Source: Candidatus Magasanikiibacteriota bacterium (GTDB lineage Bacteria; Patescibacteriota; Patescibacteriia; Magasanikbacterales; GWA2-37-8). Taken from it: a DNA stretch of 64,000 nucleotides. Of this stretch, positions 5,591 to 63,477 are shown one piece after another. The stretch covers positions 13,618 through 77,617 of the forward strand of contig JAHFHV010000001.1 of NCBI GenBank assembly GCA_023246725.1. Reading direction: 5' to 3'. Numbering within the stretch: position 1 is the stretch's first letter; each line of letters opens with the position of its first letter. The translations under genes were made by a program, and so were the position numbers. The notes below the pieces were generated by a model. That model searched no databases. It was not told the DNA's origin and saw only the letters and a program-made list of their open reading frames with translations.

Positions 5591-5710
5591 GTCATTCCGA
5601 ATCCCCCGTCACAGGGGGTGAGGAATCTCTGTCCAATCGTTGTCATTCCGACCGTAGTGGAGGAATCTCGCCAACAATCGCGAGATCCCTCGGCTGCGCT
5701 CGGGATGACA
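5591..5710. repeat. MITE-like palindromic element family 1 (GTCATYCYGA...GGATGACA), 1.5 copies
   Basis: Terminal inverted repeats gtcattccga/cgggatgaca; related copies at 13178, 16076, 23146, 25217, 27229, 45026, 49713. Confidence 0.8.
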
Positions 5711-5721
5711 ATTGACAATTA

Positions 5722-8048: not shown

Positions 8049-8051
8049 GGT

Positions 8052-8336
8052 ATGAGATTAATTATCTTGCCGTCAAAACAATTCAAACGCCAATACAGAC
8101 GCCTGCAAGTTTCCGGAAATGTTAGATTGATACATAAGCTTGATGCGATGATTGAGGCGCTGGCTTGTGGCGAGAAGCTCCCGGAAAGCGCCCGAAGCCA
8201 CAAACTTTTGGGCAATCTCAATAAATATGTAGAATGTCATGTTGAGCCGGACTGGTTATTGATTTATCAAGTTTACGAAGAAAATCTCATACTGGAACTT
8301 TTTGCCACCGGCACACACGCTACCCTGTTTGGATAG
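8052..8336 (+). CDS. yafQ: Type II toxin mRNA interferase, YafQ/RelE family
   Basis: C-terminus HVEPDWLLIYQV...ATGTHATLFG matches YafQ signature (HVEPDWILIYK...RTGTHAALFG). Confidence 0.75.
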   Translation: MRLIILPSKQFKRQYRRLQVSGNVRLIHKLDAMIEALACGEKLPESARSHKLLGNLNKYVECHVEPDWLLIYQVYEENLILELFATGTHATLFG

Positions 8337-13067: not shown

Positions 13068-13177
13068 GAAATCCTCCTTGGTCCAAGTTGGACACTTTAC
13101 CCTACAATATTTTGGCCAGTTTGTCAAGGTTGTGCTATACTGTAAGCAGGGTTAACTCATAGCCAATCTCATCAACT

Positions 13178-14254: not shown

Positions 14255-14309
14255 TTCTCTCGATTGACCTTTAAATTTCGATATTTGAATTTAGGATTTT
14301 TTACTAGTT

Positions 14310-16061: not shown

Positions 16062-16075
16062 CACTCTACCGTTTG

Positions 16076-16186
16076 TCATCCTGAGCGTAGCGAAGGATCT
16101 CTGTCTTGTTCAATTGTTAAATTGCTGTATTGTTGGTGATTGGTAGAGAGATCCTTCAGTCGCTGCGACGCTTCTTCAGGATGACA
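16076..16186. repeat. MITE family 1 copy
   Basis: tgtcatcctgagcgtagcgaaggatctc ... cttcaggatgaca. Confidence 0.8.
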
Positions 16187-16259
16187 AACGAACACTGGGA
16201 ATTCTGAGATTTTTGTGTTATACTAATAACAAGTCACCCAACAACCAATAACTCCACAT

Positions 16260-28728: not shown

Positions 28729-29853
28729 ATGCTAATTAAACGCATAATTCAGCCAAAAATTGAAGCTTCTCTATTTAAAGGCAAAGCCATTATTATTTAT
28801 GGCGCCCGCCAGGTAGGCAAAACCACCTTGGTTAAAGAAATTCAAAAGAAATTTGTGGCCGCGTCCCTTTACCTGAATTGTGATGAACCAGACATCCGCG
28901 CGGCCCTTACGAACACCACCTCCACCGAGCTCAAGGCGTATTTTGGGACTAAAAAAATAATTATTATTGATGAAGCCCAGCGCGTGGAAAACATCGGCCT
29001 GACGCTTAAACTGCTCGTGGATGCTTTTCCCGAATTGCAAATCATCGCGACCGGATCTTCGTCGTTTGAATTGTCCAACCGCATTGTGGAGCCTTTAACC
29101 GGGCGCGCCTTTGAATTTTTGTTATATCCTTTTTCCAGCGAAGAGCTTGGCGAACAGTACGCGCCCCTGGAAATCAAACGTCTGTTGGAACAGCGGCTTA
29201 TTTATGGGATGTACCCGGAAATTGTGGAACAAACGGAAAATATTGCCACGCGCTTAAAAAACATCGCCCGCAGTTACGCGTACAAAGATATTTTATTCTA
29301 CCAGCATATCCGCAACCCGGATATTTTAGAAAAATTACTGTCGGCCTTGGCTTTGCAAATTGGCCATGAGGTATCGTACAGCGAGCTGGCCAAGCTCCTT
29401 AGCATTAACCGCGTTACCGTGGAAAACTACGTGGCAATTTTAGAAAAAGCGTTTATTATTTTTCGCCTGCGCCCGTACAGCACGAATCCGCGCAAGGAAC
29501 TGGCCAAACTGCGAAAAATTTATTTTTACGACACCGGCATTCGCAATGCTCTCATTAATAACCTTAACCCGCTTAATTTGCGCAGCGATGCTGGCGCGCT
29601 GTGGAAGAATTTTTGGATTCTGGAACGCCTAAAAAATAACCATAATCATGGCCGTGACGCGCGCGCTTATTTTTGGCGTAATTATCAGAAGCAAGAAATT
29701 GATTATATTGAGGAAGCGAATGGGAAGCTGGCGGCCTTTGAATGCAAATGGTCGGTAACCAAACCAGCGCGAGCGCCCTCTGGCTGGCGCGCCCTCTACC
29801 CGGGTGCCTCGTTTACCGCGGTACACCCGGGTAACTTTTTAGAAATTAAATAG
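28729..29853 (+). CDS. AAA+ ATPase, DUF4143 type
   Basis: Walker A GARQVGKTTL, Walker B IIIDEAQ; paralog of 52389..53633. Confidence 0.7.
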   Translation: MLIKRIIQPKIEASLFKGKAIIIYGARQVGKTTLVKEIQKKFVAASLYLNCDEPDIRAALTNTTSTELKAYFGTKKIIIIDEAQRVENIGLTLKLLVDAFPELQIIATGSSSFELSNRIVEPLTGRAFEFLLYPFSSEELGEQYAPLEIKRLLEQRLIYGMYPEIVEQTENIATRLKNIARSYAYKDILFYQHIRNPDILEKLLSALALQIGHEVSYSELAKLLSINRVTVENYVAILEKAFIIFRLRPYSTNPRKELAKLRKIYFYDTGIRNALINNLNPLNLRSDAGALWKNFWILERLKNNHNHGRDARAYFWRNYQKQEIDYIEEANGKLAAFECKWSVTKPARAPSGWRALYPGASFTAVHPGNFLEIK

Positions 29854-29979: not shown

Positions 29980-30249
29980 ATGAAACCTGTCTCTAAAGCC
30001 CTTAAAACCAAACTCATTGGCGTTAAGGATTTTCGCCAAAACCTGGCGCATTATTATGCGCAGGGAGTCAAAAACGGCTTAAGCTACATTGTTACCAATC
30101 GTGACCGGGCCATTTTTGAAGTCAAGCCGCTGTCTAAAAAAGAAGCCATGCTTAAAAAGTTGGCGGCGGATATCGCGCACGCCGAACAGCAGGTGCGCGA
30201 GGGCAAGGTGTATACCTTGGAACAGGTCAGACAGCGCCTAGGTATTTAA
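29980..30249 (+). CDS. Type II antitoxin (Phd/YefM-like, inferred)
   Basis: 89 aa, immediately upstream of RelE/ParE toxin; weak family resemblance. Confidence 0.5.
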   Translation: MKPVSKALKTKLIGVKDFRQNLAHYYAQGVKNGLSYIVTNRDRAIFEVKPLSKKEAMLKKLAADIAHAEQQVREGKVYTLEQVRQRLGI

Positions 30250-30259
30250 TGATGGATAT

Positions 30260-30529
30260 ATGGAGGTCTTCAGATTACATCTTACCCAAGACGCGGAAGA
30301 TGATTTGGCTAACCTTGACCAGACGATTGCCTCTCGAATAGCGGATAAACTCCAGTGGTTCGTCTCCCAAGAAAATCCACTGTATTTTTCTAGACGCCTT
30401 TCCGGCTTTTTGGGCAAGTATCGTTTTCGCGTAGGGGACTATCGTATTATCTTCAAAGTTGATTATCGAGGCACCATCACTATTCTCGTCATTCTCCGCA
30501 TCCGGCACCGCCGCGAGGTGTACGATTAA
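30260..30529 (+). CDS. Type II toxin, RelE/ParE family
   Basis: YRFRVGDYRIIFKVDYRGTITILVILRIRHRREVY matches RelE/ParE C-terminal signature. Confidence 0.75.
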   Translation: MEVFRLHLTQDAEDDLANLDQTIASRIADKLQWFVSQENPLYFSRRLSGFLGKYRFRVGDYRIIFKVDYRGTITILVILRIRHRREVYD

Positions 30530-36337: not shown

Positions 36338-36343
36338 ACAAGT

Positions 36344-36895
36344 GTTTATAGCAGATGATCGCCCGCTCAACGCGCAAGCGCCTGAGCGGGAGGAAAGTCC
36401 GAACACCCTCAGTTTTTTCGCTACCTGCTGAGAAAAGGATAGTGGGTAACACCCACCGTTCCGATGGCAACGTCGGAAAAGGGACAGTGGCACAGAGACA
36501 ATACTACTTTGTCGCGCCGCAGCCTTGGCGAAGGCGGAACCATAAGAATCCCCGCCTTCGCCAAAGCTATGGCGCGGCAAAGGAAAGGTGAAAAGTGTAT
36601 GGGAGTTTTGGTTCTTAAGACCAAAGCTACGATACTCCGTCCCGTAGCAATGCGGGATGTGTGCTAAACCCTGTCTGGTGCAAGAGCAGCGTTTTCGTCG
36701 CAAGGCGAATTCGTAAAGTTCGCTCGCATTGCCTCGCCGAAGCCCCGCAACTGCGGGGCGAAGGCAGGCTTGATCCGGTTAGCAATAACCGGGCTAGATA
36801 AATGATCATCACCACGGATTCTTTGCACGGATCAACACAGATATTAGTGAAGATCAGTGTAAAAAATCCGTGGTACAAAATTCGGCTTATCGCTG
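36344..36895 (+). ncRNA. rnpB: RNase P RNA (bacterial type A-like) with expansion hairpins
   Basis: P4 halves gaGGAAAGUCCGaac (bulged U) and acaaaaUUCGGCUUAucg, GGGUAAcaCCCACC, cUAGAUaAAUGAuc; ends in terminator hairpin 36896-36934. Confidence 0.65.
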
Positions 36896-36963
36896 TAAAC
36901 CGCGCACCACGACAAAATTTGTCGTGGTGCGTTTGTTAGTCATAAGAAGTTGGGGACTGGCTA

Positions 36964-42453: not shown

Positions 42454-42577
42454 AATGTTTAGAAGCGGATACGGGCGAATAGTAACGCGGATATACGCAG
42501 AATCATACCAATAAGGATACCACGGGGTTTAATCTTTGTCAACTGCGCGGTTGTGTGTTATGCTACCCCTTAACTGG

Positions 42578-42706
42578 GAAATCCGAATGTCGAATATCGA
42601 AGCACGAAACAAATTCGAATGATCCAATGTACAAATGGTATATTGTTTTGAACATTATAATTTTGGTTATTTGGCATTGTTTCGAACTTCGTGCTTCGGA
42701 TTTTCT
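42578..42706. repeat. Long imperfect palindrome in secG/dsbA divergent intergenic region
   Basis: gaaatccgaa...cgaagcacgaaacaa vs ttgtttcgaacttcgtgcttcggattttc. Confidence 0.5.
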
Positions 42707-42745
42707 AAGTGAGTAGTTTACTTTCGTTTTAGTTGATTATTCTGT

Positions 42746-43510
42746 ATGGAAGATTTTGGTAAGCCAACAAACAGGTGGCATCAAACCTGGTGGGGAGTGG
42801 TATTAATCAGCCTCGTCGCGCTCATTTTTATTATAGTTATAGTTGTGGCCGGCTTTACCAGCTGGTACTGGTGGCAAATTCGCCATGGCGCAGGCGCGTT
42901 TTTAAGCAGGCAATTTGCCGCTCCGTTTACGGTCTCGGTGGCGGGCAATACCGTTAAACCAAGAGCAACGGACCGTGCGGCGTTAGAAATTGCTACGGCG
43001 CCGGCTTTGGGCAGGCAAGGCGCCCCCATTACGATTGTTGAATTTATTGATTTTAAATGCCCGAATTGCCAAGCGGCCGCCCCGATTATGCGCCAGCTTA
43101 TGGCCAAGTATGGCTATACCGCGCGGCTCCTAGTCAGGCATATTCCGCCGGAGTCGATGCATCCGGGCACCACGCGCTTGTCTGAATTTGCTTGGTGCGC
43201 TGGCGCGCAAGGGCGCTTTTGGGAAGCGCATGATTGGCTGTTCAGCCGCCAGGCTGAAATTTCGGACGCGCCAACCCCAGCAGAGCTCGCGGCGCTATCC
43301 CGGGAGGCCGGGCTTGACTCGCAAAAAATGAACGCTTGTTTAAATGGGCCCGCGGCCGAGCGCGCGGTTAAAGCCGATTATTTTGACGCGCTCCGTTTTG
43401 GCGTGCGCGGCACGCCGACGTTTTTTATCAATGGGCAAAAAATTGAAGGCGTCATTCCCTTAAGCGCTTGGGAAAATTATTTTAAGACTATTATTCCAGC
43501 CATTAAATGA
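42746..43510 (+). CDS. DsbA-family thiol:disulfide oxidoreductase, membrane-anchored, CPNC active site
   Basis: ITIVEFIDFKCPNCQAAAP, FAWCAGAQGRFWEAHDWLF. Confidence 0.8.
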   Translation: MEDFGKPTNRWHQTWWGVVLISLVALIFIIVIVVAGFTSWYWWQIRHGAGAFLSRQFAAPFTVSVAGNTVKPRATDRAALEIATAPALGRQGAPITIVEFIDFKCPNCQAAAPIMRQLMAKYGYTARLLVRHIPPESMHPGTTRLSEFAWCAGAQGRFWEAHDWLFSRQAEISDAPTPAELAALSREAGLDSQKMNACLNGPAAERAVKADYFDALRFGVRGTPTFFINGQKIEGVIPLSAWENYFKTIIPAIK

Positions 43511-43525
43511 ACTAAGAATTGAGAT

Positions 43526-44968
43526 ATGCGCGCGTTTTTTTTGCTTATCATTGCCAGTTTTTTTATCGCGGTCTCGCCCCCCACGGCTTTGGCCGCGGAG
43601 CCTAAGATTGATCCGGCGTTTAATCCGATTTGCTGGCAAGAAAAGGACTGCGCTTGCGCCCGCGCTAAATTTTTGCGTCTTGATTGTAAAAATCCCCAGG
43701 ACCCAGCTTTGCAAGGAGGATTTGTGCGCGGCGCGGCCCCGTGCGACGCGACCGGCTGGGGCAAATGTTTGCCGGTTGGCAAAACCGTAACCGAAATTTC
43801 GTTTGGCGGCAAGCGGGAATTTGCCAATGTGGCTGTTTTTATCCAGTTGTTGTACCGTTATGCCATTGGCGTCGCGGCCATTATCGCGGTAGCCATGATT
43901 ATGGTAGCGGGCGCGCAATGGATTACGTCCGCTGGCAACAGCGAGGCCATTGCCAGCGCCAAAAAACGCATTGGAGGCGCCCTCATGGGGTTGTTTCTGG
44001 CGTATCTTTCTTTTTTTATTTTGAACGCGCTTAATCCAGCGCTGGTAAATTTTCGTTTGCCCCAGGTTTTTATGGCCCGCCCAAGCCATGCCGTGCCGCA
44101 GTTTTGTTCCACGGTTTCTTCCACCGGCCAGTTTGAATTCGCGGCCAGCAAGGACAATCAGACCGTTAAGCCCAGCCTGTCGGCCCAGGCTAGTTTTTCT
44201 TTAGCGTATGCCGACCCAGCCGCCCGGGATAAATTTGTCTGCGGCAACCGGCTGTTTATTAAAAATGGCGGCGAGCAGACGTGTTTTGGAGATGTGTGCA
44301 ACCCGGGAGCAATGTGTATTGACTTGGATGATCTGGGAAAGACCGCGCCGTTCCATTGTTCTAGCGTCAGCATTATTGGCCGGATTACCAATGATAAGTT
44401 TACTGATTCAGGCTGCCTGGCAGCCACCGCCGGCCACTTGCTTTCTGGCGAAGGGTGGGAGAGTCCTCTGATTGTAAGCCATTGTAAAGTTTGTTCAAAC
44501 AAACCATGGGTTATTTGTAAGAATGGAACCAAGGTTAAAATTAGCGATGCTCGCGGCGAACTCTATGAGATGGAAGACCAGCAAAGTTATTATTTTTCTC
44601 TGTCCGGTTTAATGATTGATAATGCCGCCAAGCAATGCGGAAACCAAGGAGCAAAAGGAATCGTGATTAATTTTGAAATGAATGAAGACTGTGATATGAC
44701 AAATGAAAATCATTGGATTGGTTATGATGGCGAAGCCGGCGCTAACCAGAACCGAGGCAAGGATTTGGGCGATGATAGATTTTTTGAAAAAAATTCTGCG
44801 ACCATGCCGGAAAAATATTTTATTCCGCTGGATAAGGTTAAAAAAGGCATTATTTTAAATGTGTTTGCCGCGTCGGATATACATGATATTGACTGCCCGG
44901 GAGTGTTTGACAGCAAGGAATGCGACGCGGTGCGCGCAAAATTCTATTCGGACTTGCTTCGAAATTAG
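43526..44968 (+). CDS. Exported Cys-rich protein with internal VirB2/TrbC-pilin-like two-helix hairpin
   Basis: Signal peptide; AIGVAAIIAVAMIMVAGAQWITSAG-NSEAIASAKKRIGG-ALMGLFLAYLSFFILNALNP; 20 Cys; paralogous region in 53848..55422. Confidence 0.55.
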   Translation: MRAFFLLIIASFFIAVSPPTALAAEPKIDPAFNPICWQEKDCACARAKFLRLDCKNPQDPALQGGFVRGAAPCDATGWGKCLPVGKTVTEISFGGKREFANVAVFIQLLYRYAIGVAAIIAVAMIMVAGAQWITSAGNSEAIASAKKRIGGALMGLFLAYLSFFILNALNPALVNFRLPQVFMARPSHAVPQFCSTVSSTGQFEFAASKDNQTVKPSLSAQASFSLAYADPAARDKFVCGNRLFIKNGGEQTCFGDVCNPGAMCIDLDDLGKTAPFHCSSVSIIGRITNDKFTDSGCLAATAGHLLSGEGWESPLIVSHCKVCSNKPWVICKNGTKVKISDARGELYEMEDQQSYYFSLSGLMIDNAAKQCGNQGAKGIVINFEMNEDCDMTNENHWIGYDGEAGANQNRGKDLGDDRFFEKNSATMPEKYFIPLDKVKKGIILNVFAASDIHDIDCPGVFDSKECDAVRAKFYSDLLRN

Positions 44969-45025
44969 TTTTGGGGTATACTGGTTCCTTATTAAATAGT
45001 CTGCATTGCTCAATGCATTTTTACT

Positions 45026-45135
45026 GTCATCCTGAGCGTAGCGAAGGATCTCTGTCCGGTTCAATTCTCACATTGTTCTATTGCTATATTGTTAGTGATT
45101 GAGACAGAGATTCCTCCTTCGTCGTCGGAATGACA
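45026..45135. repeat. MITE family 1 copy
   Basis: gtcatcctgagcgtagcgaaggatctc ... cgtcggaatgaca. Confidence 0.8.
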
Positions 45136-45142
45136 AGACGTT

Positions 45143-47992
45143 ATGAAAGATCAGTTAACTATACGAGGCGCGCGCGTCCACAACCTCAAAAATCTTTCCA
45201 TTACTATCCCCAAGCACAAATTAGTCGTGCTTACGGGTTTATCCGGGTCGGGCAAATCCAGCTTAGCCTTTGACACTATTTATGTGGAAGGCCAGCGCCG
45301 GTACGCCGAATCATTGTCCAGTTACGCCCGGCAGTTTATGGAAGTGCGTGATAAGCCGGATATTGATGGGATTGAGGGATTGTCTCCCACCATCGCGATT
45401 GACCAAAAAGTATCCACCCAGAACCCGCGTTCCACCGTTGGCACGGTAACGGAAATTTATGATTATCTCCGGTTGCTGTTCGCGCGCGCGGGCGTGCAGT
45501 ATTGCCCGGAGTGCCGCGTGGCCGTGGAGGTGTACACCCCTGGGGCGATTAGCGCCAAGTCCAGGGAGCTGGCTCGCAAAACTAAAGAACTGACGATTTT
45601 TGCTCCATTGATTCGGGATGGTCGGGTTGATTCTAAAAGCCTTCTTGAAACCGTGGAAAAATCCGGCTATGAATGGGTGCGGGTTGATGGCGAGCTTTTA
45701 AAAATAAATGATTTAGCCACGTATCGCTTTGCTCCGGAGACGAATTACACAGTGGAACTTTTAATTGGCAAATTAACGGACATTAAAAAAGACGACCCGA
45801 CCAAGTTTATTGAATCTGCCCTGGAGCTTACCAACGGCCTGGTGATTGTGGCAACTGACGATACCAGTCGGCTGTTTGCCACGATTGGCCTCTGTCCGCG
45901 GTGCGGCAAAACCTTGCCCAGCCTTGATCTGCGCAGTTTTAGCTTTAACAGCCCATACGGAGCTTGCCCACGCTGTACCGGCCTGGGGGTTACCATGGAA
46001 GTAGACCCCAATTTAGTAATTCCCAATACGCGGCTAACCTTATCCGAAGGCGCCATTCAGCCCTGGACGCGCATTACCGGCAACCAAAGTTTGTATCAAA
46101 AAATGCTCTCCGCAGTGGCGGAGAGGCACGGGTTTTCCACCAGCATTCCCGTGGCCGATTTGCCGGCAAAAATTTTGGATATTATTTTGTACGGCGGGGG
46201 CGTTGAGCAGTACATGATTGAAAATAAAAAAATTAGCTTTGCCGGGGTGATTCCGGATTTAATGCAAAAGCATTTAGATACCACGTCCGATTACGTGCGC
46301 AAAGAAATTGAACAATACATGCGCGAGAAAATTTGTCCCATCTGCCAGGGAAAACGTTTGCGGCTGGAGTCGCTGGCGGTCCGGGTAGGGGATTTTACGA
46401 TTGCGGAACTGTCTAACTTAAGCGTGGCGGAATGCCGGGCGGCAGTGGAAAGGTTATCCGCTATAGGCGGAGGCGAAAGGTTTAAGGTGATTGAACCGAT
46501 TGCGAAAGAGATTGGCCCGCGCTTAAAAAATTTAGAACGAGTAGGCCTGGGGTATTTAAGTTTAAGCCGCTCCATGAATACCTTGTCGGGCGGTGAAGTT
46601 ACGCGCGTCCGCTTGGCCTCGCAATTGTCGGCCGGTCTTACGGGCGTGATTTATGTTTTGGATGAGCCGTCGGTGGGCCTGCACCCGCGCGACAATGAGC
46701 AGTTGATTGATACCTTAAAATATTTGCGCGACCTAGGCAATTCCGTTATTGTGGTGGAACACGACCCGGCCATGATGCTGGCGGCCGATTACTTAATTGA
46801 TATTGGCCCGGGCGCCGGGGTGTATGGCGGCGAAGTACTCATCGCGGGGAACTTGCGCGAATTTAAAAAAGCCGCGGCTCGCCTAGACTCGGGGCGGGCT
46901 AAAGGAAAATCTGCCAGTGGCCAGCATTCGCTGACAGCCGACTATTTATTTGGTCAAGCGGATTTTAGCGATTTGTACCCCAAAAAATCAGACGGAAAGA
47001 AGCCGCCAACGGGCAAAAGTTTGAGCATTATGGGAGCGAGCGCGTTTAATTTAAAAAATATTGATGTGGAGATTCCGCTCGGCAAGCTTGTTTCCGTCAC
47101 GGGCGTGTCTGGTTCCGGCAAGTCAACTTTAATTATAGATATTTTAGGCAAGGCATTATCCAAATATTTTTACCGCGCCAAAGACGAGCCGGGCGCGCAT
47201 AAAACCATCAAAGGGCTCTCTAACATAGACAAAGTGATTGCCATTGACCAAAGCCCCATTGGCCGCACGCCCCGTTCTAACCCCGCTACCTACACCGGTG
47301 TGTTTACACTTATTCGGGATGTGTTCGCGTCCCTTACCGAAGCCCGCATGCGCGCGTACGACGCCGGTAAATTTAGTTTTAACGTTAAAGGCGGGCGGTG
47401 CGAGGCCTGCGCCGGCGAAGGCTATGTGCGCATCCCCATGCAATTTTTGGCCGATGTGTTTGTGGAGTGTAGCGAGTGCAATGGCCTAAGGTACAATCAA
47501 GAGGCTTTGGAAATTCATTACCACAATAAGCACATTGCCGACGTGTTAAAGATGACGGTGGAAGAAGCGCGCAGTTTTTTTAGCGAGTTTCCGCCTATAG
47601 CCGACAAGCTCAACATTCTGCGCGAAGTGGGCCTGGGCTACGTGGAACTGGGCCAGCCGGCTACCACCATATCGGGCGGCGAGGCCCAGCGCATAAAATT
47701 GGCGCAAGAGTTGTCCCGCCCGTCTACCGGCAAGACACTCTACATTTTGGACGAACCAACGACCGGACTGCATTTTGAAGATACCAAACGACTCTTGCGA
47801 GTGCTTCGTCAGTTAGTCAGCAAAGGTAATTCGGTGGTGATTATTGAACATAACGTGGATGTGATTCGTTGCAGTGATTGGGTAATTGATTTAGGGCCCG
47901 AGGGCGGCAACCAAGGCGGCCTGGTGGTAGCCGAAGGCACGCCAGGTGACGTGAAGAAGAATAAGAAGAGCTGGACGGGACGGTACCTGTGA
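45143..47992 (+). CDS. uvrA: Excinuclease ABC subunit A
   Basis: Two ABC ATPase modules ([20 protein letters not shown]), zinc-finger cysteines; 949 aa. Confidence 0.93.
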
Positions 47993-52388: not shown

Positions 52389-53633
52389 TTATATCACCCA
52401 TCGAGGAAGAAAATGCACGGCGGTGTTTTCTATTTTTGTGGCATGGAAGGCGGAATCTCCCAAAAGTAAAGCGTGGGACGGGCGGTATTCCCGTATAAAG
52501 TTGTGAAGCGATCGAGTAACGGTCGCTGTATTGAGCAAACTTTTACTTTCGATGGGAATTACCGTTGGTCCGGTTTTAACAACAAAATCAACCTCCGACT
52601 GGGATTTGCTGCGCCAATAATTGACTGAGCAATTCTGTTTTAAGAGTTGCGTAAAAATAAAATTTTCATATAGCGGCCCCTTGTCGCTCCGCCGGTTAAG
52701 CGGGTTAAAATTTTGCAGGACATAATTTCGCAGACCAGTGTCGAAAAAATACGGCTTAGGATTTTTGGTGATTTCTTTGCGTCGGTTGGAAAACCACGGC
52801 CGCACCAGTTGGCAGATAAAAGTTTTTTCCAGAATATTGAGATATTTTTTTAGGGTTATCTGATCGTATCCGGAAATTTGGCCGAGTTCGTTATAGTTTA
52901 CTAATTGCCCGATTTGCACCGCCAAGGCTTCAATTAGTTTTGAGAGCTTAAAATCATCAATTAGGCCCAAGGTATCCTTAATATCACGCAGAAAATAGGT
53001 GTTGTAAATATTGCTTAAAACAGTCATTTTTTTATCTTCGGTATCTTCTAGTATTACTCGCGGGTAGCCGCCCCAAATAATAAATTCATCGGCCAGCGCT
53101 AAAAGTTGGCTATTAGCAGGGCCGCTAATTTTTAGCGAGGCAATGCTTGGTTTTTTTAAATTAATGTGCTGGCGGCATTCCGCGTATAGCGCCATGAGCG
53201 ATGGATCGCGGAAAGACACGAATTCCTCAAAATCAAGCTCATACAGGTTAAAAATAAAAACCCGGCCGACTAAAAATTTTAGCGCCTTGATGGTTAAATC
53301 AATAGCGCTGGAACCGGAAATTATTATTTTACAGCCCGGGTAAGTGTCATAGAGATATTTAAGATTTTTTCCGCCTTGCTTGGCATATTGGAATTCATCA
53401 ATAAATAGGTATTTGCCTGCTAAGTATTTCTTGGCAAATCCGTCAATATCCCGTTCAAAGTCAGCCAGGGTTTGCATTTTATCAAAACTAATAAAAACCG
53501 CGTCGCTTAAGCCGCCATGGATTTTTTTTAACAACGTGGTTTTGCCGCTTTGCCGCGGGCCGACAATTGCCAAAATTTCTGGGTCTTCTAAATAGCTTAA
53601 AATGGTAGTCTCTAATTTTCGCTTAATATACAT
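52389..53633 (-). CDS. AAA+ ATPase, DUF4143 type (paralog 2)
   Basis: Walker A GPRQSGKTTLL, Walker B LFIDEFQ. Confidence 0.7.
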   Translation of the reverse strand: MYIKRKLETTILSYLEDPEILAIVGPRQSGKTTLLKKIHGGLSDAVFISFDKMQTLADFERDIDGFAKKYLAGKYLFIDEFQYAKQGGKNLKYLYDTYPGCKIIISGSSAIDLTIKALKFLVGRVFIFNLYELDFEEFVSFRDPSLMALYAECRQHINLKKPSIASLKISGPANSQLLALADEFIIWGGYPRVILEDTEDKKMTVLSNIYNTYFLRDIKDTLGLIDDFKLSKLIEALAVQIGQLVNYNELGQISGYDQITLKKYLNILEKTFICQLVRPWFSNRRKEITKNPKPYFFDTGLRNYVLQNFNPLNRRSDKGPLYENFIFTQLLKQNCSVNYWRSKSQSEVDFVVKTGPTVIPIESKSLLNTATVTRSLHNFIREYRPSHALLLGDSAFHATKIENTAVHFLPRWVI

Positions 53634-53847: not shown

Positions 53848-55422
53848 CTAGAAAGGCAGATACCACGAACAGGCGTGGCCTTGTGATGCCGCCTTTTTTT
53901 CTTCATTTTTTAAACCTAACTTTGTCCAATCGAAAGCGCGCGGGTCGCCGTGTCCGTTTGATGGAACTAGTTCACAATGGCCAACAATATTTTTTGAAGC
54001 GAGAGGAATATTATAACGCGCCCTAATATCATCTACCAATTTTTTTAAAGAATCATATTGTGCCGCTGTCGGATCGCATGCTGTGTGTACATCTTGCGCG
54101 GAAGGATTTTTAAGTGAGTTGCATGAATTCCCGCTGGCATCTTTGCCAATATTAAGCTCTATTCCTATGCCATCATTGTTGCCGCCTGGCGCATGGGGGA
54201 CAACACACCTCTCAGCGGCATGTTGAACGATTTTCCCATCCTTGCTAATAGTATAATGCGCGCCAGCAAGTTTGTACTTAATTGGTTTGCCGTTTTTGTC
54301 ATATCTTTCTTTCTCCGGTATCTGATCAGGATTTCTATTGTAAAAACAACCTTTATACCATGTATTCTGGTTCATTTCTAAAGTATAACCACCATTGTGG
54401 ATAACTATTTTTTTAATATTTGATGAATCCCGTGTTTTATAAGTGCAAACATCAACTTTACCAAGAAAAGTTTGTGTATCAACATAGCTACGGTTTTTTT
54501 CTCCGGGAGTAAGTTCTTTCAAAGAATCACATGGGCCAGAGACAGCCTTTATGGCAATAACAGTGGCTTTTTCATCCTCTATATGATTATCTTCTAACGC
54601 TATCTTTGCCACATACTTCACCCGCAAGGCTTTAAAGGCCACTAAATCCGGATTAAGGTAAAACATTATTACGTACGAAAACCACAGAATCATAAGGCCA
54701 ATGACAATCTGCCCAATGCGCTTATAGGCTTCCATTTTGCCTTCGCCGCCGCCGGAAATAACAATGTCAAACCCTTTTTTAATAATAATGGCTACGGCCA
54801 CTACGCTTCCCACGGCCACGCCGAATTTATACACGGCGGCAATGTATTCCCCAATCCACGGGATGTGCAAGAAGCCTTCCGCGTCCACTTGGCCGGACAG
54901 ATCGGAAAATTTAAGCTGGGGAAGGCGGATCATTAGCTTGGGTTTATAGGTGCCGGCGTTAATTTCGTTCTGCAGGCTAAGGCCCCATACCCCGGGGTCG
55001 AGCAAAGCATCAGTGGCGCTGGACTTGCCGGGTTTAAGGGGCGCGCAGATTTCCCCGTGGGTGCTTTCGCAATAGTCTAGGTCTTTTGTGGTGTTAGCGC
55101 CGTCAACACAGCTCCATTCGCCATGGTCGCTGGGAGCGCCGTAGGCGCTAAAACAGTCGTTATCATCGTCGCAGTCGCAATACCATTTGTTTTCAATAAT
55201 GCCACCCTGGTTTTTAAAAACTTCCGTGCTTTTTTCGCAATCGCCGCTAAAACACTGGGAGTCGCCCTGGCATTCTTCGCCAAACTTTTTTTTGCCGCCG
55301 GTAGGAGCCTGTTCGCAGCTGCCGGCCAAGGCCGGCGCTAGCGGCGCGAGAAGAATAAAAATCAAACCGGTTAACCAGCTAACGGCCAGGGCTTTACAGA
55401 TTAATGCTCGTGGGCGCGACAT
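53848..55422 (-). CDS. Exported Cys-rich VirB2/TrbC-pilin-like protein fused to Amidase_2/PGRP peptidoglycan amidase
   Basis: Signal/TM, Cys-rich N-domain, helical hairpin AVAIIIKKGFDIVISGGGEGKMEAYKRIGQIVIGLMILWFSYVIMFYLNPDLVAF parallel to 43526 protein; C-terminal amidase-like block HAPGGNNDGIGIEL...GHCELVPSNGHGDP. Confidence 0.55.
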   Translation of the reverse strand: MSRPRALICKALAVSWLTGLIFILLAPLAPALAGSCEQAPTGGKKKFGEECQGDSQCFSGDCEKSTEVFKNQGGIIENKWYCDCDDDNDCFSAYGAPSDHGEWSCVDGANTTKDLDYCESTHGEICAPLKPGKSSATDALLDPGVWGLSLQNEINAGTYKPKLMIRLPQLKFSDLSGQVDAEGFLHIPWIGEYIAAVYKFGVAVGSVVAVAIIIKKGFDIVISGGGEGKMEAYKRIGQIVIGLMILWFSYVIMFYLNPDLVAFKALRVKYVAKIALEDNHIEDEKATVIAIKAVSGPCDSLKELTPGEKNRSYVDTQTFLGKVDVCTYKTRDSSNIKKIVIHNGGYTLEMNQNTWYKGCFYNRNPDQIPEKERYDKNGKPIKYKLAGAHYTISKDGKIVQHAAERCVVPHAPGGNNDGIGIELNIGKDASGNSCNSLKNPSAQDVHTACDPTAAQYDSLKKLVDDIRARYNIPLASKNIVGHCELVPSNGHGDPRAFDWTKLGLKNEEKKAASQGHACSWYLPF

Positions 55423-55425
55423 ATT

Positions 55426-56073
55426 TTATTTCGCGATTAAACTCATCAGCATCTGCTCAAGATCAACAGCTTGATCTACGCGCACTCGTTTGTTGTTGGC
55501 AAACAAAGCCGGCGGGTTTTTAAGGCCCAGCGCCGCGGCCAGGCTGGCGCCAGCGTCAATCCCCGGCTCCATGGTTCCAGACGACAAGCACTGCTGCCAT
55601 TCAGTAAGGTTAAGTTTAAGCGCCGCGGCCAATTCCCGCAGAGCCTTGGCGCCGGCTTTGGTTGGCCGCGCCGCCAGCTGGTCGGCATACTGCCAAAATT
55701 TGCCTTGCGCGCCAGCGCACCAAGCGGCCACATGCGGGGCAAGATTGGCCGGGGAAAACAGCTGGCTCTTAGGCAAGTCCTTCCAGGCCAGCCGGGCATC
55801 GCTCGGGTGCGCGTCCACAAAGGCAGCGAGCGTCCGCAATATTTTTTTACTAGCCGCATCGCCTAAATCGGCGAAGATCACCAGTGTGAGCGGCGCCCCG
55901 GGGTTGCCGCGCAGGGGGTCGCTGCTTAAAATTGGCAGGGGGTAGTTCTCAAAACTAATTAAAGGAGCGACTTCGGCCGTGGTCACAATTCCTTGCGCGC
56001 GTTTAACCTGACGCCAGAAAATTATGGCCAGGATGATTGTGCAGAGCCCGATAATCAACAATAGTTTTTTCAT
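55426..56073 (-). CDS. DsbA-family thioredoxin-fold protein, CXXC lost (degenerate paralog of 42746 DsbA)
   Basis: LTLVIFADLGDAASK where CPNC expected; AAWCAGAQGKFWQYADQLA conserved with 42746 product. Confidence 0.6.
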   Translation of the reverse strand: MKKLLLIIGLCTIILAIIFWRQVKRAQGIVTTAEVAPLISFENYPLPILSSDPLRGNPGAPLTLVIFADLGDAASKKILRTLAAFVDAHPSDARLAWKDLPKSQLFSPANLAPHVAAWCAGAQGKFWQYADQLAARPTKAGAKALRELAAALKLNLTEWQQCLSSGTMEPGIDAGASLAAALGLKNPPALFANNKRVRVDQAVDLEQMLMSLIAK

Positions 56074-56074
56074 A

Positions 56075-57331
56075 TTATAAGTTTACCTGAAACACCCCCT
56101 GTTTATTGGGATCCGTAAACAGCACCTTATTTTTTTTAGCATCGTAGGATATTGAATTGATGTGAAAGTTATTACCCAAGGGAACATTGGTGGTCAAACC
56201 GGTTTTCAAATCAATTTTGTACATGTCATCGGGCAGAGTGTCGGCAATGGCCGGCGACATGCCCGCTCCTTGGGGCAAGTCGCGCGGCACAGCGCAGAAC
56301 AGGGTGTTGTCATCGCCAAACGAACATTTGTTAGCCCAGGTGTTTAAGCGCAGAGTTTGGCGGTTGCTGCCAATATCATCACCATACGAATTCACCACCC
56401 ACAGCTCTGGTTTAAAATCGCTGCGGGCGCTATCCACGCTGTAAAGCAGTTTTTTACCGGTCGGCGACCACTGCGGCTGAAAATTCAACCCTTCCACGAC
56501 CGTGGATTTAAAATTTTCCCCGTTCAAGCCCACAAATAATACTTCCACCCGGTCGGCCCCTTGCGGCGCCCCGGTGCGGGACAAAGCCACGGTTTGCCGG
56601 CTGGGCGACCAATCCACGGTAACGCGGTCGCCATTATCGCCCAAGGGTTCAATTAGCTTGGTGCCGGTGCCGTCGTCTTTGGCTACCACCAGCCAGCGGT
56701 TTTCCGGTGAGAGTCCTAGGCTTTTGGCCGCTACTTCCGTGCTATCTGGGGAAAAGGAAAAATCTTGCCAGTGTTTGGGCAAGGTAATTTGTTTTTTAAG
56801 ATCAAAATTGTACAAAATTTTGGAGCTGTCGGGGTACTCCAGCACCGCTTTGTTACCAGTTTTTGCCCAGGTAACATTTTGGACGTTATAGAATACTTGG
56901 TCGCTTAAGGCAGTGGTTTGCCCAGCGTCGCCCACGCGGTAAAATTTGCCGTCTTGCGCGTTATGGTAGCGAAAATCGCCGCTCGCCGCCAGAGAAGAAA
57001 AAACGGCCGCGTCAGCATTAAGCTGAGTTACCGGTTCCGGCGTAAAGTAGCTGGGCGTCGCTCCAGGAATGGCGCCTGCCGTCGGCAAGCCTCCTTCCGC
57101 GCCGCCGCTTGGTGTTGCCTCGCCCGCCCCGGGCACGCGTTCTCCCGCGCCCGGCAGCTGGCCAGGCGCTGCGCCCGGGCGAGTTCCGCCGACCGTGGTG
57201 GGGGGCGGCGTGGCCTTAAAAAACAGCGTGAAAATGCCCCAGGCAATTAAAGCCGAGATTGTAAGCAAGCCGAGGATGAGGAGAATTCGTTTGAGTCCAG
57301 AAGACATAGGAAGTGAAATATCAAATGACAA
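56075..57331 (-). CDS. Membrane-anchored PD40 (TolB-like) beta-propeller repeat protein
   Basis: N-terminal TM, Pro/Gly-rich linker, repeated propeller blades. Confidence 0.55.
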   Translation of the reverse strand: MSFDISLPMSSGLKRILLILGLLTISALIAWGIFTLFFKATPPPTTVGGTRPGAAPGQLPGAGERVPGAGEATPSGGAEGGLPTAGAIPGATPSYFTPEPVTQLNADAAVFSSLAASGDFRYHNAQDGKFYRVGDAGQTTALSDQVFYNVQNVTWAKTGNKAVLEYPDSSKILYNFDLKKQITLPKHWQDFSFSPDSTEVAAKSLGLSPENRWLVVAKDDGTGTKLIEPLGDNGDRVTVDWSPSRQTVALSRTGAPQGADRVEVLFVGLNGENFKSTVVEGLNFQPQWSPTGKKLLYSVDSARSDFKPELWVVNSYGDDIGSNRQTLRLNTWANKCSFGDDNTLFCAVPRDLPQGAGMSPAIADTLPDDMYKIDLKTGLTTNVPLGNNFHINSISYDAKKNKVLFTDPNKQGVFQVNL

Positions 57332-57367: not shown

Positions 57368-59317
57368 TTATTTCGCGTTGGCGGGTGTCGTAGGCGCGGG
57401 CGCGGGCGGCGGCGCTCCGCCGGTTTTGCCTCCCGCAGAAATTGTCGCCTGGTTTGGCAGGGCTCCGGCCGAGCCCTCGTCGGCCAGTTCTTTGTTAATG
57501 TCAACGAGTTTGTTTTTGAGGTAAACTTTTTTCTTTTCAACGGCCAGCTTTTCTTCCAGCGGCTTAAGTTTTTTGTTAATATCTTCAATCACATCGCCAA
57601 TCGCTTTTACCAGCGGCGCCGCCGGAATGTTTATGGCGCGCAAGGGCTTAATGAACTCCCTGGCTAGAATAAACATCGCGATTGGTATGGCGATGACGGG
57701 CGAGATGATTGCCAAAACAATACCAGCCGGGAAGAATATGCCCAGCAGACGCAAAATCCATTTTAAAACTATCCAGCCGGCGTCAATTTCGGCGCCCGGC
57801 AAAATTTGCGCGAACCGAAGCGACGAACGAGCGCTCTTAAGAATTCCAATCCGCGCTTCCAGGGCCGTTATCATCACTTCGCTCGTTACATTCTCCAGGC
57901 CGTATTTCATGCCTTCTATTTTAGCATAAATGCCGGGAAGAAAAAAGCGGATAATCCGGAGCGAGGTGGTTTTTTTGATGCTGTCCACCTTGCCTTGCAT
58001 TTGGTTTAGCTCTTTCATTATCGCGTCCCGGGCTTTTTTAAGCTTTTGTTTGCGGCTACGAAGAGCGTTGGCAATACCCCCCTGGTCTTTGGATTTGGCG
58101 GCTTCGGGAGGCGCACCATCTTTGCCCGGGGCGCCAGCGGCTTGACCAGCGCCTCCCTCCGAGGGAACTTGCTCGGGCGGGTTGAGCCGCTCATCGTTAG
58201 CCGTGGCCGGCTGGTCATTCGCGCCAGCTGGTTCCGACTGGGCGCCGCGCTCGGCCCCTAACTGGGCGGCTTTATCGCGGTTTAAATCGTTGACGGCTTC
58301 AGGGGGAGCCGCGGGCGGCTCTGTGCCCGGGGCGGAGGGGCCCGCTTCCGGGGCGGCTGGAGAGGCTTCGCCTTCGGTGCCCGGGGCGGCTGGTTGTTCG
58401 CCGTCAGTTGGTGAAGGCTGTTCCCCGCCCGCAGCCTTGTTTGCGGCGTCGGCATCAGAGTCATTTTTTTGTTCAGCGGGATTATCTTCATTTTGATCTT
58501 TTTCCGCTGTTTCATCGGTTGGTTTTTCGTTGTCTGCCGGGGAGCTGGGGGCCTCCGGTGCCGCGTTTTTGGATTGTTCCGGCGGAGTTTCTCCAGGCGC
58601 TGATTCCGTTCCAACCGGCTGTCCAGTCTTGTCATCAGGACCAGCCGTCGGAGTATTGTCGCCACCTTGCGCTGGGCCGCCCTCTGGCTTTGGAGCTGGG
58701 ACGGGCGTCTCTTGGTCGCTTGGCCCGCCAACGCCAGGGGGGACGGTCTGGGCGGTTGGTTTTTCTTTTGTCTCTCCGCCGCTAGCCGCTGGCTGTTCTG
58801 CCTCGCCGCCCTCTGGCGCTGGTTCGCTTTCGGCCGCCCCCCGCTCATACTCGTCACGGGCCGCTGCCCAGGCGGCTTCGTCCAAGGCGTTGCCGCCGTT
58901 GTTTTTTTCCGCCGCTAAAAGTATCTCCTGCCAAGCATCGTCTTGTTCCGGCAAGGGAAGATTAGTTTTTAAGTTCACTATGAGTTTGTTGCCAGAAGTT
59001 TGCGCTTGGTTCCCTGGCCCCGAACTTACTGCGTTAACAACTTCCACTGGGGCACCAGAACCAGAAACTGGAGTAGTAGGTTCGGCTGACACCGGCGCCG
59101 GCTGATCTTTCTCCGGAGCTTTAGAAGCCTGTGCCGCGAGATCGGCAATGGTTCTGTTGTTGTCATGCCTAACGTTTCTGGTTTGCCCAAGTTTCGTGCG
59201 CAAAGCGCGGTGTTTTAAATAATCAGAATAGCCGCTCGAGGCAGGAGTAGCGCCTTCCGCGTCTGGCGCGGCACCCGGCAACTGCGGGGTGGGAGCCGTG
59301 GAAGGGTCAACAGGCAT
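57368..59317 (-). CDS. Hypothetical membrane protein with about 400-aa Pro/Ala/Glu/Gly-rich low-complexity region
   Basis: C-terminal TM segments (IFFPAGIVLAIISPVIAIPIAMFIL); compositional high-GC due to low complexity. Confidence 0.5.
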   Translation of the reverse strand: MPVDPSTAPTPQLPGAAPDAEGATPASSGYSDYLKHRALRTKLGQTRNVRHDNNRTIADLAAQASKAPEKDQPAPVSAEPTTPVSGSGAPVEVVNAVSSGPGNQAQTSGNKLIVNLKTNLPLPEQDDAWQEILLAAEKNNGGNALDEAAWAAARDEYERGAAESEPAPEGGEAEQPAASGGETKEKPTAQTVPPGVGGPSDQETPVPAPKPEGGPAQGGDNTPTAGPDDKTGQPVGTESAPGETPPEQSKNAAPEAPSSPADNEKPTDETAEKDQNEDNPAEQKNDSDADAANKAAGGEQPSPTDGEQPAAPGTEGEASPAAPEAGPSAPGTEPPAAPPEAVNDLNRDKAAQLGAERGAQSEPAGANDQPATANDERLNPPEQVPSEGGAGQAAGAPGKDGAPPEAAKSKDQGGIANALRSRKQKLKKARDAIMKELNQMQGKVDSIKKTTSLRIIRFFLPGIYAKIEGMKYGLENVTSEVMITALEARIGILKSARSSLRFAQILPGAEIDAGWIVLKWILRLLGIFFPAGIVLAIISPVIAIPIAMFILAREFIKPLRAINIPAAPLVKAIGDVIEDINKKLKPLEEKLAVEKKKVYLKNKLVDINKELADEGSAGALPNQATISAGGKTGGAPPPAPAPTTPANAK

Positions 59318-62866: not shown

Positions 62867-63181
62867 ATGGAGGTACAATTCTTTGATGAGGCACTAGTAA
62901 AGTTTATCAGAACACTTGAACAATCAACTGGCGCCAAGATTTTTCGCGCAATTGATTTGCTTGAACGTTTTGGTTCAACGCTAGGGATGCCGCACAGCAA
63001 AAAGATCGCACTTCGGTTATTTGAACTGCGAATCAGAGGTCAGCAAGAAGTGAGGATTTTGTACGCATTCCATAATAATACCGCCATGTTATTGCATGGA
63101 TTTGTTAAAAAAACCGATCGTATTCCCGCCCGGGAATTACGTACTGCCTTACAAAAATTAGCGACACTTGACAAAGTATAA
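62867..63181 (+). CDS. higB: Type II toxin HigB-like (Gp49/RelE superfamily)
   Basis: LFELRIRGQQEVRILYAF...LLHGFVKKTDRIPARE pattern; precedes HTH antitoxin. Confidence 0.7.
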   Translation: MEVQFFDEALVKFIRTLEQSTGAKIFRAIDLLERFGSTLGMPHSKKIALRLFELRIRGQQEVRILYAFHNNTAMLLHGFVKKTDRIPARELRTALQKLATLDKV

Positions 63182-63204
63182 CGTATATGTTATACTGAAT
63201 TTAT

Positions 63205-63477
63205 ATGAAATCATACACTGAAATTAAAAAGGAATTTCTTAAAGATCCTGCTTTCCGCAAAGCCTATGAAGAACTGGGGCCTGAGTTTGAATTGGCCAGC
63301 ATGATTATTGAGAAGCGCCTGCGTAAAGGGCTGACACAAAAAGCGCTGGCTAAAAAAATTGGAACTCAACAGTCAGCTATTGCCCGCCTTGAGTCCGGAG
63401 ATTATAACCCAACAATAGCGTTTTTAGAAAAAGTTTCTAAAGCGCTTGGTGCTCGTTTGTCAATCTCGTTAGGTTAG
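63205..63477 (+). CDS. higA: HigA-like antitoxin, XRE-family HTH
   Basis: LRKGLTQKALAKKIGTQQSAIARLESG helix-turn-helix. Confidence 0.75.
   Translation: MKSYTEIKKEFLKDPAFRKAYEELGPEFELASMIIEKRLRKGLTQKALAKKIGTQQSAIARLESGDYNPTIAFLEKVSKALGARLSISLG

Follow-up and report, generated by a model that had tools for sequence, protein, structure and literature searches.

Two chromosomal cassettes pairing a DsbA-like gene with a pilin-type hairpin gene in Magasanikbacteria: candidate folding partners of disulfide-rich exported proteins

Here we analyze a 64,000-nucleotide stretch of the Candidatus Magasanikiibacteriota bacterium assembly GCA_023246725.1 (contig JAHFHV010000001.1, positions 13,618 to 77,617 of the forward strand), hereafter the window, and two gene cassettes that it contains. 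In each cassette, a gene for a membrane-anchored thioredoxin-fold protein of the DsbA/BdbD type (dsbA1) or a paralogue of it (dsbA2) immediately precedes a gene for an exported, cysteine-rich protein organized around a two-helix hairpin of pilin type (pil1, pil2). No other thioredoxin-fold gene and no other hairpin gene was found in the 64 kb, and the four genes form adjacent, co-oriented pairs. Because the only two genes of each kind pair up in this way, and because the arrangement recurs across species, the pairing is more than chance. Our results point to a partnership in which the upstream gene may provide folding or assembly help to the protein encoded beside it.

The window is ordinary chromosome, carrying gyrA, ftsH, thrS, uvrA, recG, radA, clpB, secG, RNase J and RNase P RNA, with recG and radA situated between the two cassettes. 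Metagenome bins from groundwater and freshwater, labelled Candidatus Magasanikbacteria or Patescibacteria, are the source of the exact pil1 protein and of its best homologues; these genomes are assigned to the GTDB class ABY1 (Table S1 of PMC12102498). For the first cassette (copy 1) we surveyed one genome per GTDB species with our own calling of open reading frames (ORFs) and hidden Markov models (HMMs), obtaining 63 loci, of which 61 could be tested for the pairing and two were cut by contig ends; 66 pil1 orthologues were aligned. The second cassette (copy 2) was followed in eight loci, comprising four gene-call look-ups, one GTDB locus, two distinct metagenome loci and the window itself, and a metagenome scan with a 14-sequence pil2 alignment returned 12 loci, four of them with a hairpin. 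Individual loci are cited by their survey numbers (L005 and so forth).

Architecture of the two cassettes

The preliminary description of this DNA, made from the letters alone, had recognized dsbA1 as a membrane-anchored DsbA with an intact CPNC site, and this identification stands. Hydropathy places a transmembrane (TM) helix at aa 16-37, preceded by basic residues that fit an outward-facing domain; the CPNC motif occupies aa 105-108 (nt 43058-43069), and the protein matches Pfam Thioredoxin_4 (PF13462, 1.8e-21) and DSBA (PF01323, 5.8e-18). A GTP loop carries the presumed cis-proline at P224, and there is a second conserved cysteine pair, C151/C198; C151, C198 and P224 are invariant both in all DsbA-like ORFs of the GTDB species loci and the window and in the DsbA-like alignment covering both copies. 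The nearest solved relatives of dsbA1 are 3gyk, BdbD (3eu3) and a DsbA of Corynebacterium diphtheriae (4pwp), and the Pfam matches and relatives in the PDB indicate a thioredoxin fold with the DsbA helical insertion for dsbA1 and dsbA2 alike.

The pil1 gene starts 15 bp downstream and encodes, as had also been described, a 480-aa protein with a signal peptide, exactly 20 cysteines and a two-helix hairpin. The signal-peptide region is free of cysteine in most orthologues, and four residues of the N-terminal ectodomain (C36, C42, C73 and C81) are nearly invariant in the orthologue alignment. The hydrophobic helices span aa 102-137 and 148-174 by hydropathy, including the segments quoted in the preliminary description, and AlphaFold2 (AF2) models hairpin helices at 102-134 and 139-169 with a predicted local distance difference test (pLDDT) above 90. 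A K146-K147-R148 (KKR) motif in the turn is nearly invariant, and a NPALVNFRLPQV motif follows the second helix. The AF2 model built on the 66-sequence alignment (pLDDT 88, predicted TM-score 0.76) has, beside the hairpin, a small domain at the N-terminus and a large, beta-rich one at the C-terminus, with pLDDT of about 88-93 over aa 31-80 and 80-84 over aa 81-100. Foldseek gave no PDB match at E<1e-3, MexA/AcrA-like rows at E about 1 having been dismissed, and pil1 has no match in NCBIfam or in PHROG.

The disulfide state of pil1 was approached through cysteine parity and cysteine co-variation across orthologues. The number of cysteines is even in the N-ectodomain and in the C-ectodomain of all 66 orthologues, the hairpin is cysteine-free in 65 of them, and variable cysteines are gained or lost in pairs (297 with 389, and alignment column 489 with 313; phi 0.82 each across the 66 orthologues). 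Given the even counts in both ectodomains and the paired gain and loss, every cysteine of pil1 is almost certainly disulfide-bonded, which would amount to 3 + 7 bonds. A cleaved signal peptide followed by two TM helices would in turn place both flanking domains outside the cytoplasm. Conservation is concentrated in the hairpin, with a mean pairwise identity among orthologues of 63%, compared to 43% for the N-ectodomain and 26% for the C-ectodomain (Table 1).

The preliminary description had further reported a duplicated module at 53848-56073. The same gene order and hairpin do recur there, dsbA2 lying 3 bp upstream of pil2, but the flanking domains are unrelated, dsbA2 lacks a CxxC motif and pil2 carries an amidase. 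Against dsbA1, dsbA2 shows 26% identity (E 2e-13); it has LGDAAS at the CPNC position (DAAS in the alignment), and hence no redox site, and retains the second cysteine pair (C119/C162) and the cis-proline. The common part of pil1 and pil2 is the hairpin, over about 80 residues (27/80 identical, 34%, E 4e-8), so that the duplicated unit is a thioredoxin-fold gene plus a hairpin module rather than the whole proteins.

The C-terminal domain of pil2 matches Amidase_2 (PF01510, 7.1e-19, 68.9 bits against a cut-off of 26), with additional matches to an AmpD-like NCBIfam model (2e-8) and to PHROG endolysin/amidase families (9.7e-13). Residues H342, H482, C483, H491 and D493 are invariant in 14 relatives, and by analogy with AmpD and T7 lysozyme they are candidates for metal-binding and catalytic roles. 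The relatives of pil2 share a Cys-rich N-ectodomain, a pre-hairpin strand (IPWIGEYIAAVY), the hairpin and an NPxLVxF motif, after which a DDHxCDDPxxC linker leads into the hydrolase. This is Amidase_2 in most and VanY or NlpC/P60 in others; at the syntenic gene, the closest named relative (P0131) has VanY and another (P0140) NlpC/P60. That the wall-cleaving domain changes while the locus stays the same suggests that bond specificity is under selection.

The endolysin matches bring to mind a domesticated or resident phage lysis cassette, in which a holin-like two-TM segment would be fused to an endolysin and copy 1 would be a diverged relative; class II holins, too, possess two TM helices. The locus is nevertheless part of the core chromosome, devoid of phage genes. 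The order ClpB, variable protein, a protein of about 412 aa, Thioredoxin_4, hairpin-hydrolase, RadA is found in three of four relatives (L009, L010 and L012; L010 has a second hairpin gene before RadA), and the contig of the fourth, L011, ends before ClpB. Moreover, pil2 combines a cleavable signal peptide with a Cys-rich N-ectodomain, PHROG contains no match for pil1, and the type of hydrolase is swapped with the N-terminal module kept. A phage origin is thus already disfavoured, and we consider it very improbable.

Table 1. Genes and protein parts of the two cassettes and of the genes upstream of copy 2, in window coordinates (AF2, AlphaFold2; TM, transmembrane).
Feature	Position (nt)	Strand	Basis
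dsbA1, membrane-anchored DsbA/BdbD-type thioredoxin-fold protein, 254 aa	42746..43510	+	ORF map, Pfam
pil1, exported hairpin protein, 480 aa, 20 Cys	43526..44968	+	ORF map
pil1 Sec signal peptide, aa 1-23, A-L-A site, cleavage after A23	43526..43594	+	sequence, hydropathy
pil1 N-terminal Cys-rich ectodomain, aa 24-97, 6 Cys	43595..43816	+	alignment, AF2
pil1 pilin-type helical hairpin module, aa 98-182	43817..44071	+	PF18895, AF2
pil1 C-terminal Cys-rich ectodomain, aa 183-480, 14 Cys, beta-rich, lineage-specific	44072..44968	+	
pil2, exported hairpin protein, 524 aa, 19 Cys (18 in mature protein)	53848..55422	-	
pil2 signal peptide, aa 1-33, followed by Cys-rich N-ectodomain		-	
pil2 hairpin, aa 184-272	54607-54873	-	
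pil2 Amidase_2 domain, aa 334-495	53938-54423	-	Pfam PF01510
dsbA2, paralogous membrane-anchored thioredoxin-fold protein, 215 aa	55426..56073	-	PF13462 1.7e-6
418-aa TM + beta-propeller protein	56075-57331	-	
649-aa Cys-free low-complexity protein, C-terminal TM pair	57368-59317	-	
clpB, conserved upstream gene of copy-2 operon	59327-61870	-	Pfam

Conservation of the pairing and drift of the partner active site

A DsbA-like ORF lies upstream of the copy-1 hairpin gene, on the same strand, in all 61 testable species, and is directly adjacent in 60. The apparent gaps range mostly from -37 to +39 bp, with a few of 70-282 bp; in L070 the gap is about 800 bp and may hold a small ORF. Gene-call look-ups agree, with all seven homologues inspected (28-100% identity) showing a Thioredoxin_4/DSBA gene, the hairpin gene and UvrA in that order, and the pair is intact in L005, where the upstream flank differs (Lactamase_B_3/gyrA, not secG). 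For copy 2, a thioredoxin-fold gene adjoins the hairpin gene in 8/8 loci. Additional hairpin genes occur directly downstream within the same DsbA-led operons at L010:9477-10976 and L022:17300-18535.

The preliminary description had proposed a dedicated disulfide-forming partner. Its adjacency claim is upheld by these counts, but the disulfide-forming role does not extend to the family as a whole. Among the 61 copy-1 partners, the active site is CxxC in 36 species and CPx[S/T] in 25, the first cysteine always being kept; copy-2 partners have CxxC in five of eight loci and have lost both cysteines in the other three, the window included. The client remains Cys-rich whatever the active site of its partner. 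A monothiol thioredoxin-fold site can attack and shuffle disulfides and cannot donate one, and a site-less protein only binds. With 25/61 copy-1 sites monothiol and the copy-2 site lost in 3/8, the partner is not simply disulfide-forming, and its conserved role would be better described as client-specific folding or assembly help, isomerase or chaperone work included, with oxidation as one variant. The dsbA1 protein of the window itself is plausibly an oxidase, judging from its intact CPNC site.

Two loci illustrate the point. In both L065 and L068 the client-adjacent DsbA has a CPYS site, and a separate protein with a CPYC DsbA domain is encoded a few kb away (L065:1238-2701, L068:1-1435). 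The latter is a secreted protein of about 480 aa that joins an N-terminal domain without known family to the C-terminal DsbA domain, and it could be the real oxidase in these genomes.

These data bear directly on a housekeeping explanation, according to which dsbA1 and dsbA2 are general oxidoreductases, the hairpin is a passive two-pass anchor, and adjacency reflects rigid synteny or operon packing in a streamlined genome. The gene 3' of pil1 is uvrA in every relative looked up, often only 3-12 bp away, so that adjacency in itself is poor proof; the window showed no further DsbA-type gene, and dsbA1 resembles the general monoderm oxidoreductases BdbD and C. diphtheriae DsbA. A general oxidase, however, should not lose its resolving cysteine in 25 of 61 species, or its whole site in copy 2, beside the same client, and L065 and L068 encode a second, CPYC protein near a client-adjacent CPYS one. 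The pair is also present twice as paralogues, both retained, which is a stronger argument than synteny, and conservation peaks in the hairpin, unlike what a passive anchor would show. Since the active site of copy-1 partners drifts with the first cysteine, the cis-proline and adjacency kept, a client-specific factor would fit better than a general oxidase, and we consider the housekeeping explanation unlikely.

Three side observations concern the copy-1 locus. In the window, pil1 and the uvrA gene behind it together span 43526-47992, and the short distance of 3-12 bp at which uvrA adjoins pil1 in relatives suggests a dsbA-pil1-uvrA co-transcript linking envelope and DNA-repair genes. The intergenic region between secG and dsbA1 (42573-42710) holds a long imperfect inverted repeat, unique within the window, with 26-nt arms 73 nt apart that fold as RNA at -50.9 kcal/mol (z = -4.9). 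We rejected it as a conserved regulatory leader, since it shows no conservation upstream of dsbA1 in relatives and matches no Rfam family at gathering score; a small insertion, a hairpin resembling a miniature inverted-repeat transposable element, or a strain-specific leader would each be conceivable. Finally, many GTDB-representative records titled 'uncultured Gammaproteobacteria bacterium' (third-party-annotation metagenome-assembled genomes, TPA_asm; L014, L016-L018, L021, L022, L037 and others), including the 1.23-Mb chromosome OZ246405.1, carry the dsbA-pil1-uvrA locus of Magasanikbacteria type, and their titles look taxonomically wrong.

The hairpin family and type IV secretion

The hairpin had been likened in the preliminary description to VirB2/TrbC pilin subunits, a comparison that holds for a pilin-type Pfam family and fails for VirB2 itself. 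The PF18895 (T4SS_pilin) model matches pil1 at aa 105-169 with 23.4 bits (E 6.5e-5), short of its gathering cut-off of 26.6, and does not match pil2 at E<=1. Across orthologues, however, it matches 65 of 66 pil1 sequences at E<=1e-3 (best 4.2e-10), a precomputed match exists for 6 of 20 pil2 relatives, and the sources of several homologues already annotate them as 'Type IV secretion system pilin', 'TrbC/VirB2 family protein' or simply 'pilin'. Signal peptide, two-helix hairpin and both ends outside, the layout of the family, are predicted from hydropathy, the AF2 model and cysteine parity, and the assignment to PF18895 is solid at the family level. DUF6112 matches 11 of the 66 pil1 orthologues, and PF18895 is the dominant Pfam domain of freshwater-specific structure clusters.

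The TrbC/VirB2 family proper (PF04956), in turn, does not match the window proteins at E<=1 and only weakly matches four of the 66 pil1 orthologues (best 2.3e-5). Alignment of the hairpin profile with VirB2 by hhalign gave a probability of about 1% (E 0.05), both with a single sequence and with a 27-sequence profile that is narrow (Rhizobiales) and makes for a weak test. No pilin was found among PDB sequences with the hairpin profile, and tblastn of the hairpin against 72,556 plasmids returned no match.

A screen of every window ORF of at least 150 aa with Pfam detected no VirB4, VirD4, VirB3, VirB6 or other gene of a type IV secretion system (T4SS), extending to the whole list of T4SS genes the earlier remark that the window lacks VirB4 and VirD4; nor was any such gene found in about 9 kb beyond the 3' end of the window. 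No T4SS genes lie within about 10 kb in the 63 species loci, and phmmer searches with VirB2, VirB3, VirB4, VirB6 and VirB8 of pTiC58 found no match near them. Walker-A clustering combined with Pfam yielded as VirB4 candidates near the loci only UvrA, RecG, RadA, ClpB, FtsH and AAA_14, all of which were rejected. The suggestion of a surface appendage or of a T4SS origin is not supported at these loci, which show no sign of a pilus.

One could still suppose that pil1 and pil2 are true T4SS pilus subunits, which a VirB4-type system encoded elsewhere would extract and polymerise or else install at the tip or base, with the DsbA-like proteins as factors of TrbB/TraF type; the product would be a conjugative-type filament bearing disulfide-stabilised adhesin and wall-hydrolase domains. 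Known pilins mature to roughly 70-100 aa. Mature pil1 and pil2, at about 457 and 491 aa, both carry large ectodomains, and a 300-aa domain per subunit would be hard to pack helically. The neighbourhood is likewise free of T4SS genes, and neither profile nor structure comparisons gave a significant match to VirB2, be it solved or of Agrobacterium type. The idea draws support from the PF18895 family and the four TrbC-matching orthologues, from the VirB2 layout of signal peptide, two helices and basic loop, from the strong conservation of the hairpin, and from the existence of thioredoxin-fold assembly factors in F-type systems. Most Magasanikbacteria genomes are scored VirB4-positive (Table S1, PMC12102498), and VirB4 is recorded there for five of the six Magasanikbacteria genomes of our locus set that were looked up; the closest named relative, GCA_009694865.1 (a draft bin, looked up separately as a seventh), is listed without it. 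T4SS loci of ABY1 have been reported near recG, radA and comF. In addition, PMC10633639 and PMC12102498 describe VirB2-like pilins of Patescibacteria as essential and often present in several copies. Weighing these points, we regard true pilus subunits as quite unlikely, and a functional tie of the cassettes to a T4SS as possible but unsupported.

A different, type IV pilus-type system is encoded in the window at 13298-17411, separate from the VirB2-type hairpins. Its T2SSE ATPase gene (Pfam, 1.7e-117; 14310-16061) is flanked by two ORFs without family match, of 318 aa and 383 aa.

The remaining observations concern genes around copy 2 and elsewhere in the window. The 649-aa protein encoded downstream of clpB has a Pro/Ala/Glu-rich N-terminal region of about 400 residues and matches nothing in Pfam or PHROG, and the 418-aa propeller protein has no PHROG match; the slot between clpB and the propeller gene is always filled by a gene of variable length (262-649 aa) in the relatives looked up. 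Two AAA_14/DUF4143 ATPase genes are present (52389-53633 and 28729-29853). The position of the one between pil2 and radA is empty in L009, L010 and L012 and occupied in L011, and another such gene adjoins pil1 in L036, so that this looks like a variable, possibly mobile, gene. Class A RNase P RNA (36343-36905) matches over 563 nt against a 367-position model (134 bits), which implies roughly 200 inserted nt and an unusually long molecule. A protein with tetratricopeptide (TPR), thrombospondin-type-3 and OmpA-family regions is encoded at 12075-13127 in an organism thought to lack an outer membrane. Small adjacent gene pairs resembling toxin-antitoxin modules lie at 62867-63477, 29980-30529 and 7749-8336, the first corresponding to a Gp49 (HigB-like) and HTH_3 pair in the gene calls of L076.

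A proposed folding partnership and its relation to known systems

The interpretation that we favour, with a probability of roughly 0.55, is that of a surface protein held by its hairpin and locked by disulfides, served by a dedicated folding factor of thioredoxin fold, be it oxidase, isomerase or chaperone, so that each cassette would consist of a folding factor and its client. The client, pil1 or pil2, would be exported by Sec and lose its signal peptide, and its two long PF18895-type helices would insert as a hairpin with the short, KKR-tipped turn in the cytoplasm. Both flanking domains would then be displayed outside the membrane of a monoderm cell, locked by disulfides. The membrane-anchored catalytic domain of DsbA/BdbD type encoded by the upstream gene would also face outward and, we infer, act on the emerging ectodomains as a dedicated folding catalyst. 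The CPNC partner of window copy 1 could be an oxidase, a CPx[S/T] partner could only be an isomerase or mixed-disulfide chaperone, and for the site-less partner of window copy 2 the sole option would be a chaperone or assembly factor that works without redox chemistry. The copy-2 cargo would be a peptidoglycan hydrolase cutting the cell's own wall or that of a host, and the copy-1 cargo a beta-rich domain specific to the lineage, which has an adhesin-like sandwich and probably serves in binding. Because the hairpin is far more conserved than a passive anchor requires, it would probably self-associate or dock on a membrane machine, possibly a T4SS encoded elsewhere in most Magasanikbacteria.

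Several points weigh against this interpretation. The uvrA gene is as constant next to pil1 as the DsbA gene; synteny in this lineage can therefore persist without shared function, and is by itself weak evidence. The proteins dsbA1 and dsbA2 may be the main or only extracytoplasmic DsbA proteins of the organism, with many substrates. No DsbB or VKOR re-oxidant was recognised among the window ORFs; an ORF at 5618-6121 with two CxxC motifs was considered and set aside as probably non-coding, having no Pfam match and an implausible sequence. The tie of the hairpin to real conjugative pilins runs through its predicted Pfam family, the hhalign and PDB comparisons being negative, and the lack of T4SS genes around the 63 species loci, together with the VirB4-negative listing of the closest named relative, likewise weighs against it.

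In a bolder extension, an epibiotic bacterium of the Candidate Phyla Radiation (CPR) would build the hairpin proteins into a filament or channel of T4SS type, or mount them on its tip or base, and so display a disulfide-hardened cargo. If so, a swappable hydrolase (amidase, VanY or NlpC/P60) would breach the host wall and a fast-evolving binding domain would recognise it, each cargo being served by its own thioredoxin-fold assembly chaperone, with redox chemistry partly abandoned. Such an enzyme-armed pilus of conjugative type would be a surface organelle of an as yet undescribed kind, and we consider it a long shot.

The folding partnership is of interest for Patescibacteria at large, a phylum that accounts for much of bacterial diversity and whose members seem to live attached to hosts. 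For the one genetically tested species, PMC10633639 reports that T4SS and 'pilin arrays' are essential. As this locus shows, part of what databases call 'pilin' in this phylum is a conserved hairpin module bearing large disulfide-locked extracellular domains, interchangeable cell-wall hydrolases among them, with a DsbA-like partner of its own, which cautions against counting every PF18895 match as a pilus subunit. The clients are candidates for molecules that touch or cut the host envelope, and their ectodomains model confidently and are thus testable by recombinant expression.

Among known systems, the closest in family and phylum are the Patescibacteria 'T4SS pilin' proteins, which share the hairpin family by HMM, the Sec signal peptide with two helices, and the occurrence of several paralogues per genome. 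In Quinonero-Coronel et al. 2025 (PMC12102498), VirB2-like pilins are counted in 1,948 Patescibacteria assemblies, near virB4 in 1,135 and often in arrays; Wang et al. 2023 (PMC10633639) report them as essential in Southlakia epibionticum, and they are reviewed in PMC12857230. The published examples, as far as the available text of PMC10633639 and PMC12102498 goes, are pilin subunits or arrays in or near virB4 clusters. Here, in contrast, the hairpin is embedded in proteins of 480-524 aa, between disulfide-rich ectodomains or before a peptidoglycan hydrolase, in core housekeeping synteny with no T4SS genes nearby, and is always DsbA-led. The main texts of these two papers make no mention of DsbA or disulfides. 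The classical TrbC/VirB2 pilins (Agrobacterium tumefaciens VirB2, RP4 TrbC) have a signal peptide, two helices, a basic inter-helix loop and termini outside, as pil1 is predicted to have, but the proteins described here are about five times larger, with no VirB4, VirB6 or other T4SS genes in the vicinity.

MdbA of Actinomyces and Corynebacterium (PMC5478893, PMC9974433) and BdbD of Bacillus subtilis resemble the upstream partners in their N-terminal anchor, extracytoplasmic DsbA fold and CxxC site, and count pilus subunits among their clients. Their clients, however, are sortase pilins or a type IV pseudopilin rather than VirB2-type hairpins, and they keep the CxxC motif that many partners here do not. 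To our knowledge, both are general oxidases that are not encoded beside their pilin clients. The hydrolases of Gram-positive T4SS (the VirB1-like PrgK, TcpG and CwlT) are comparable to pil2 as TM-anchored extracellular wall hydrolases of variable type in monoderms; pil2 differs in being anchored by a PF18895 hairpin behind a Cys-rich ectodomain instead of a single TM helix, in carrying Amidase_2 and not SLT or CHAP, and in lying outside a T4SS cluster.

The nearest parallel to the partner series is found in F-like T4SS, where TrbB is a CXXC disulfide isomerase/chaperone and TraF, devoid of CXXC, is needed for pilus extension (PMC11315126). In both cases thioredoxin-fold proteins are encoded with a pilin-type system, and the two mirror the CxxC, Cxx[S/T] and no-Cys series seen here. 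TrbB and TraF are, however, periplasmic proteins of diderm plasmids with a DsbC-like/TraF fold, unlike the membrane-anchored DsbA/BdbD type with helical insertion, and dsbA1 scores below threshold against both TraF (PF13728, 16.8 bits, cut-off 23, E 0.0065) and TrbB (TIGR02738, 12.9 bits, cut-off 132, E 0.065); the likeness is one of analogy, not homology.

The novelty claimed in the preliminary description, which knew of no cassette of this architecture, needs to be narrowed, as VirB2-like pilins of CPR bacteria are published, but the pairing with DsbA and the ectodomain architecture were not found in the literature searched; full-text searches found no paper that brings DsbA and disulfides together with the Candidate Phyla Radiation, or a cysteine-rich protein and pilin together with Patescibacteria. 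Pilin-like hairpin proteins of CPR bacteria are known, and what is apparently new is the DsbA-led cassette, the ectodomain architecture in which hydrolases are swapped, and the stepwise loss of the redox site. The latter provides a natural series, from CxxC through Cxx[S/T] to no cysteine, that may show how a DsbA-type oxidase becomes a client-specific chaperone, in parallel to TrbB and TraF.

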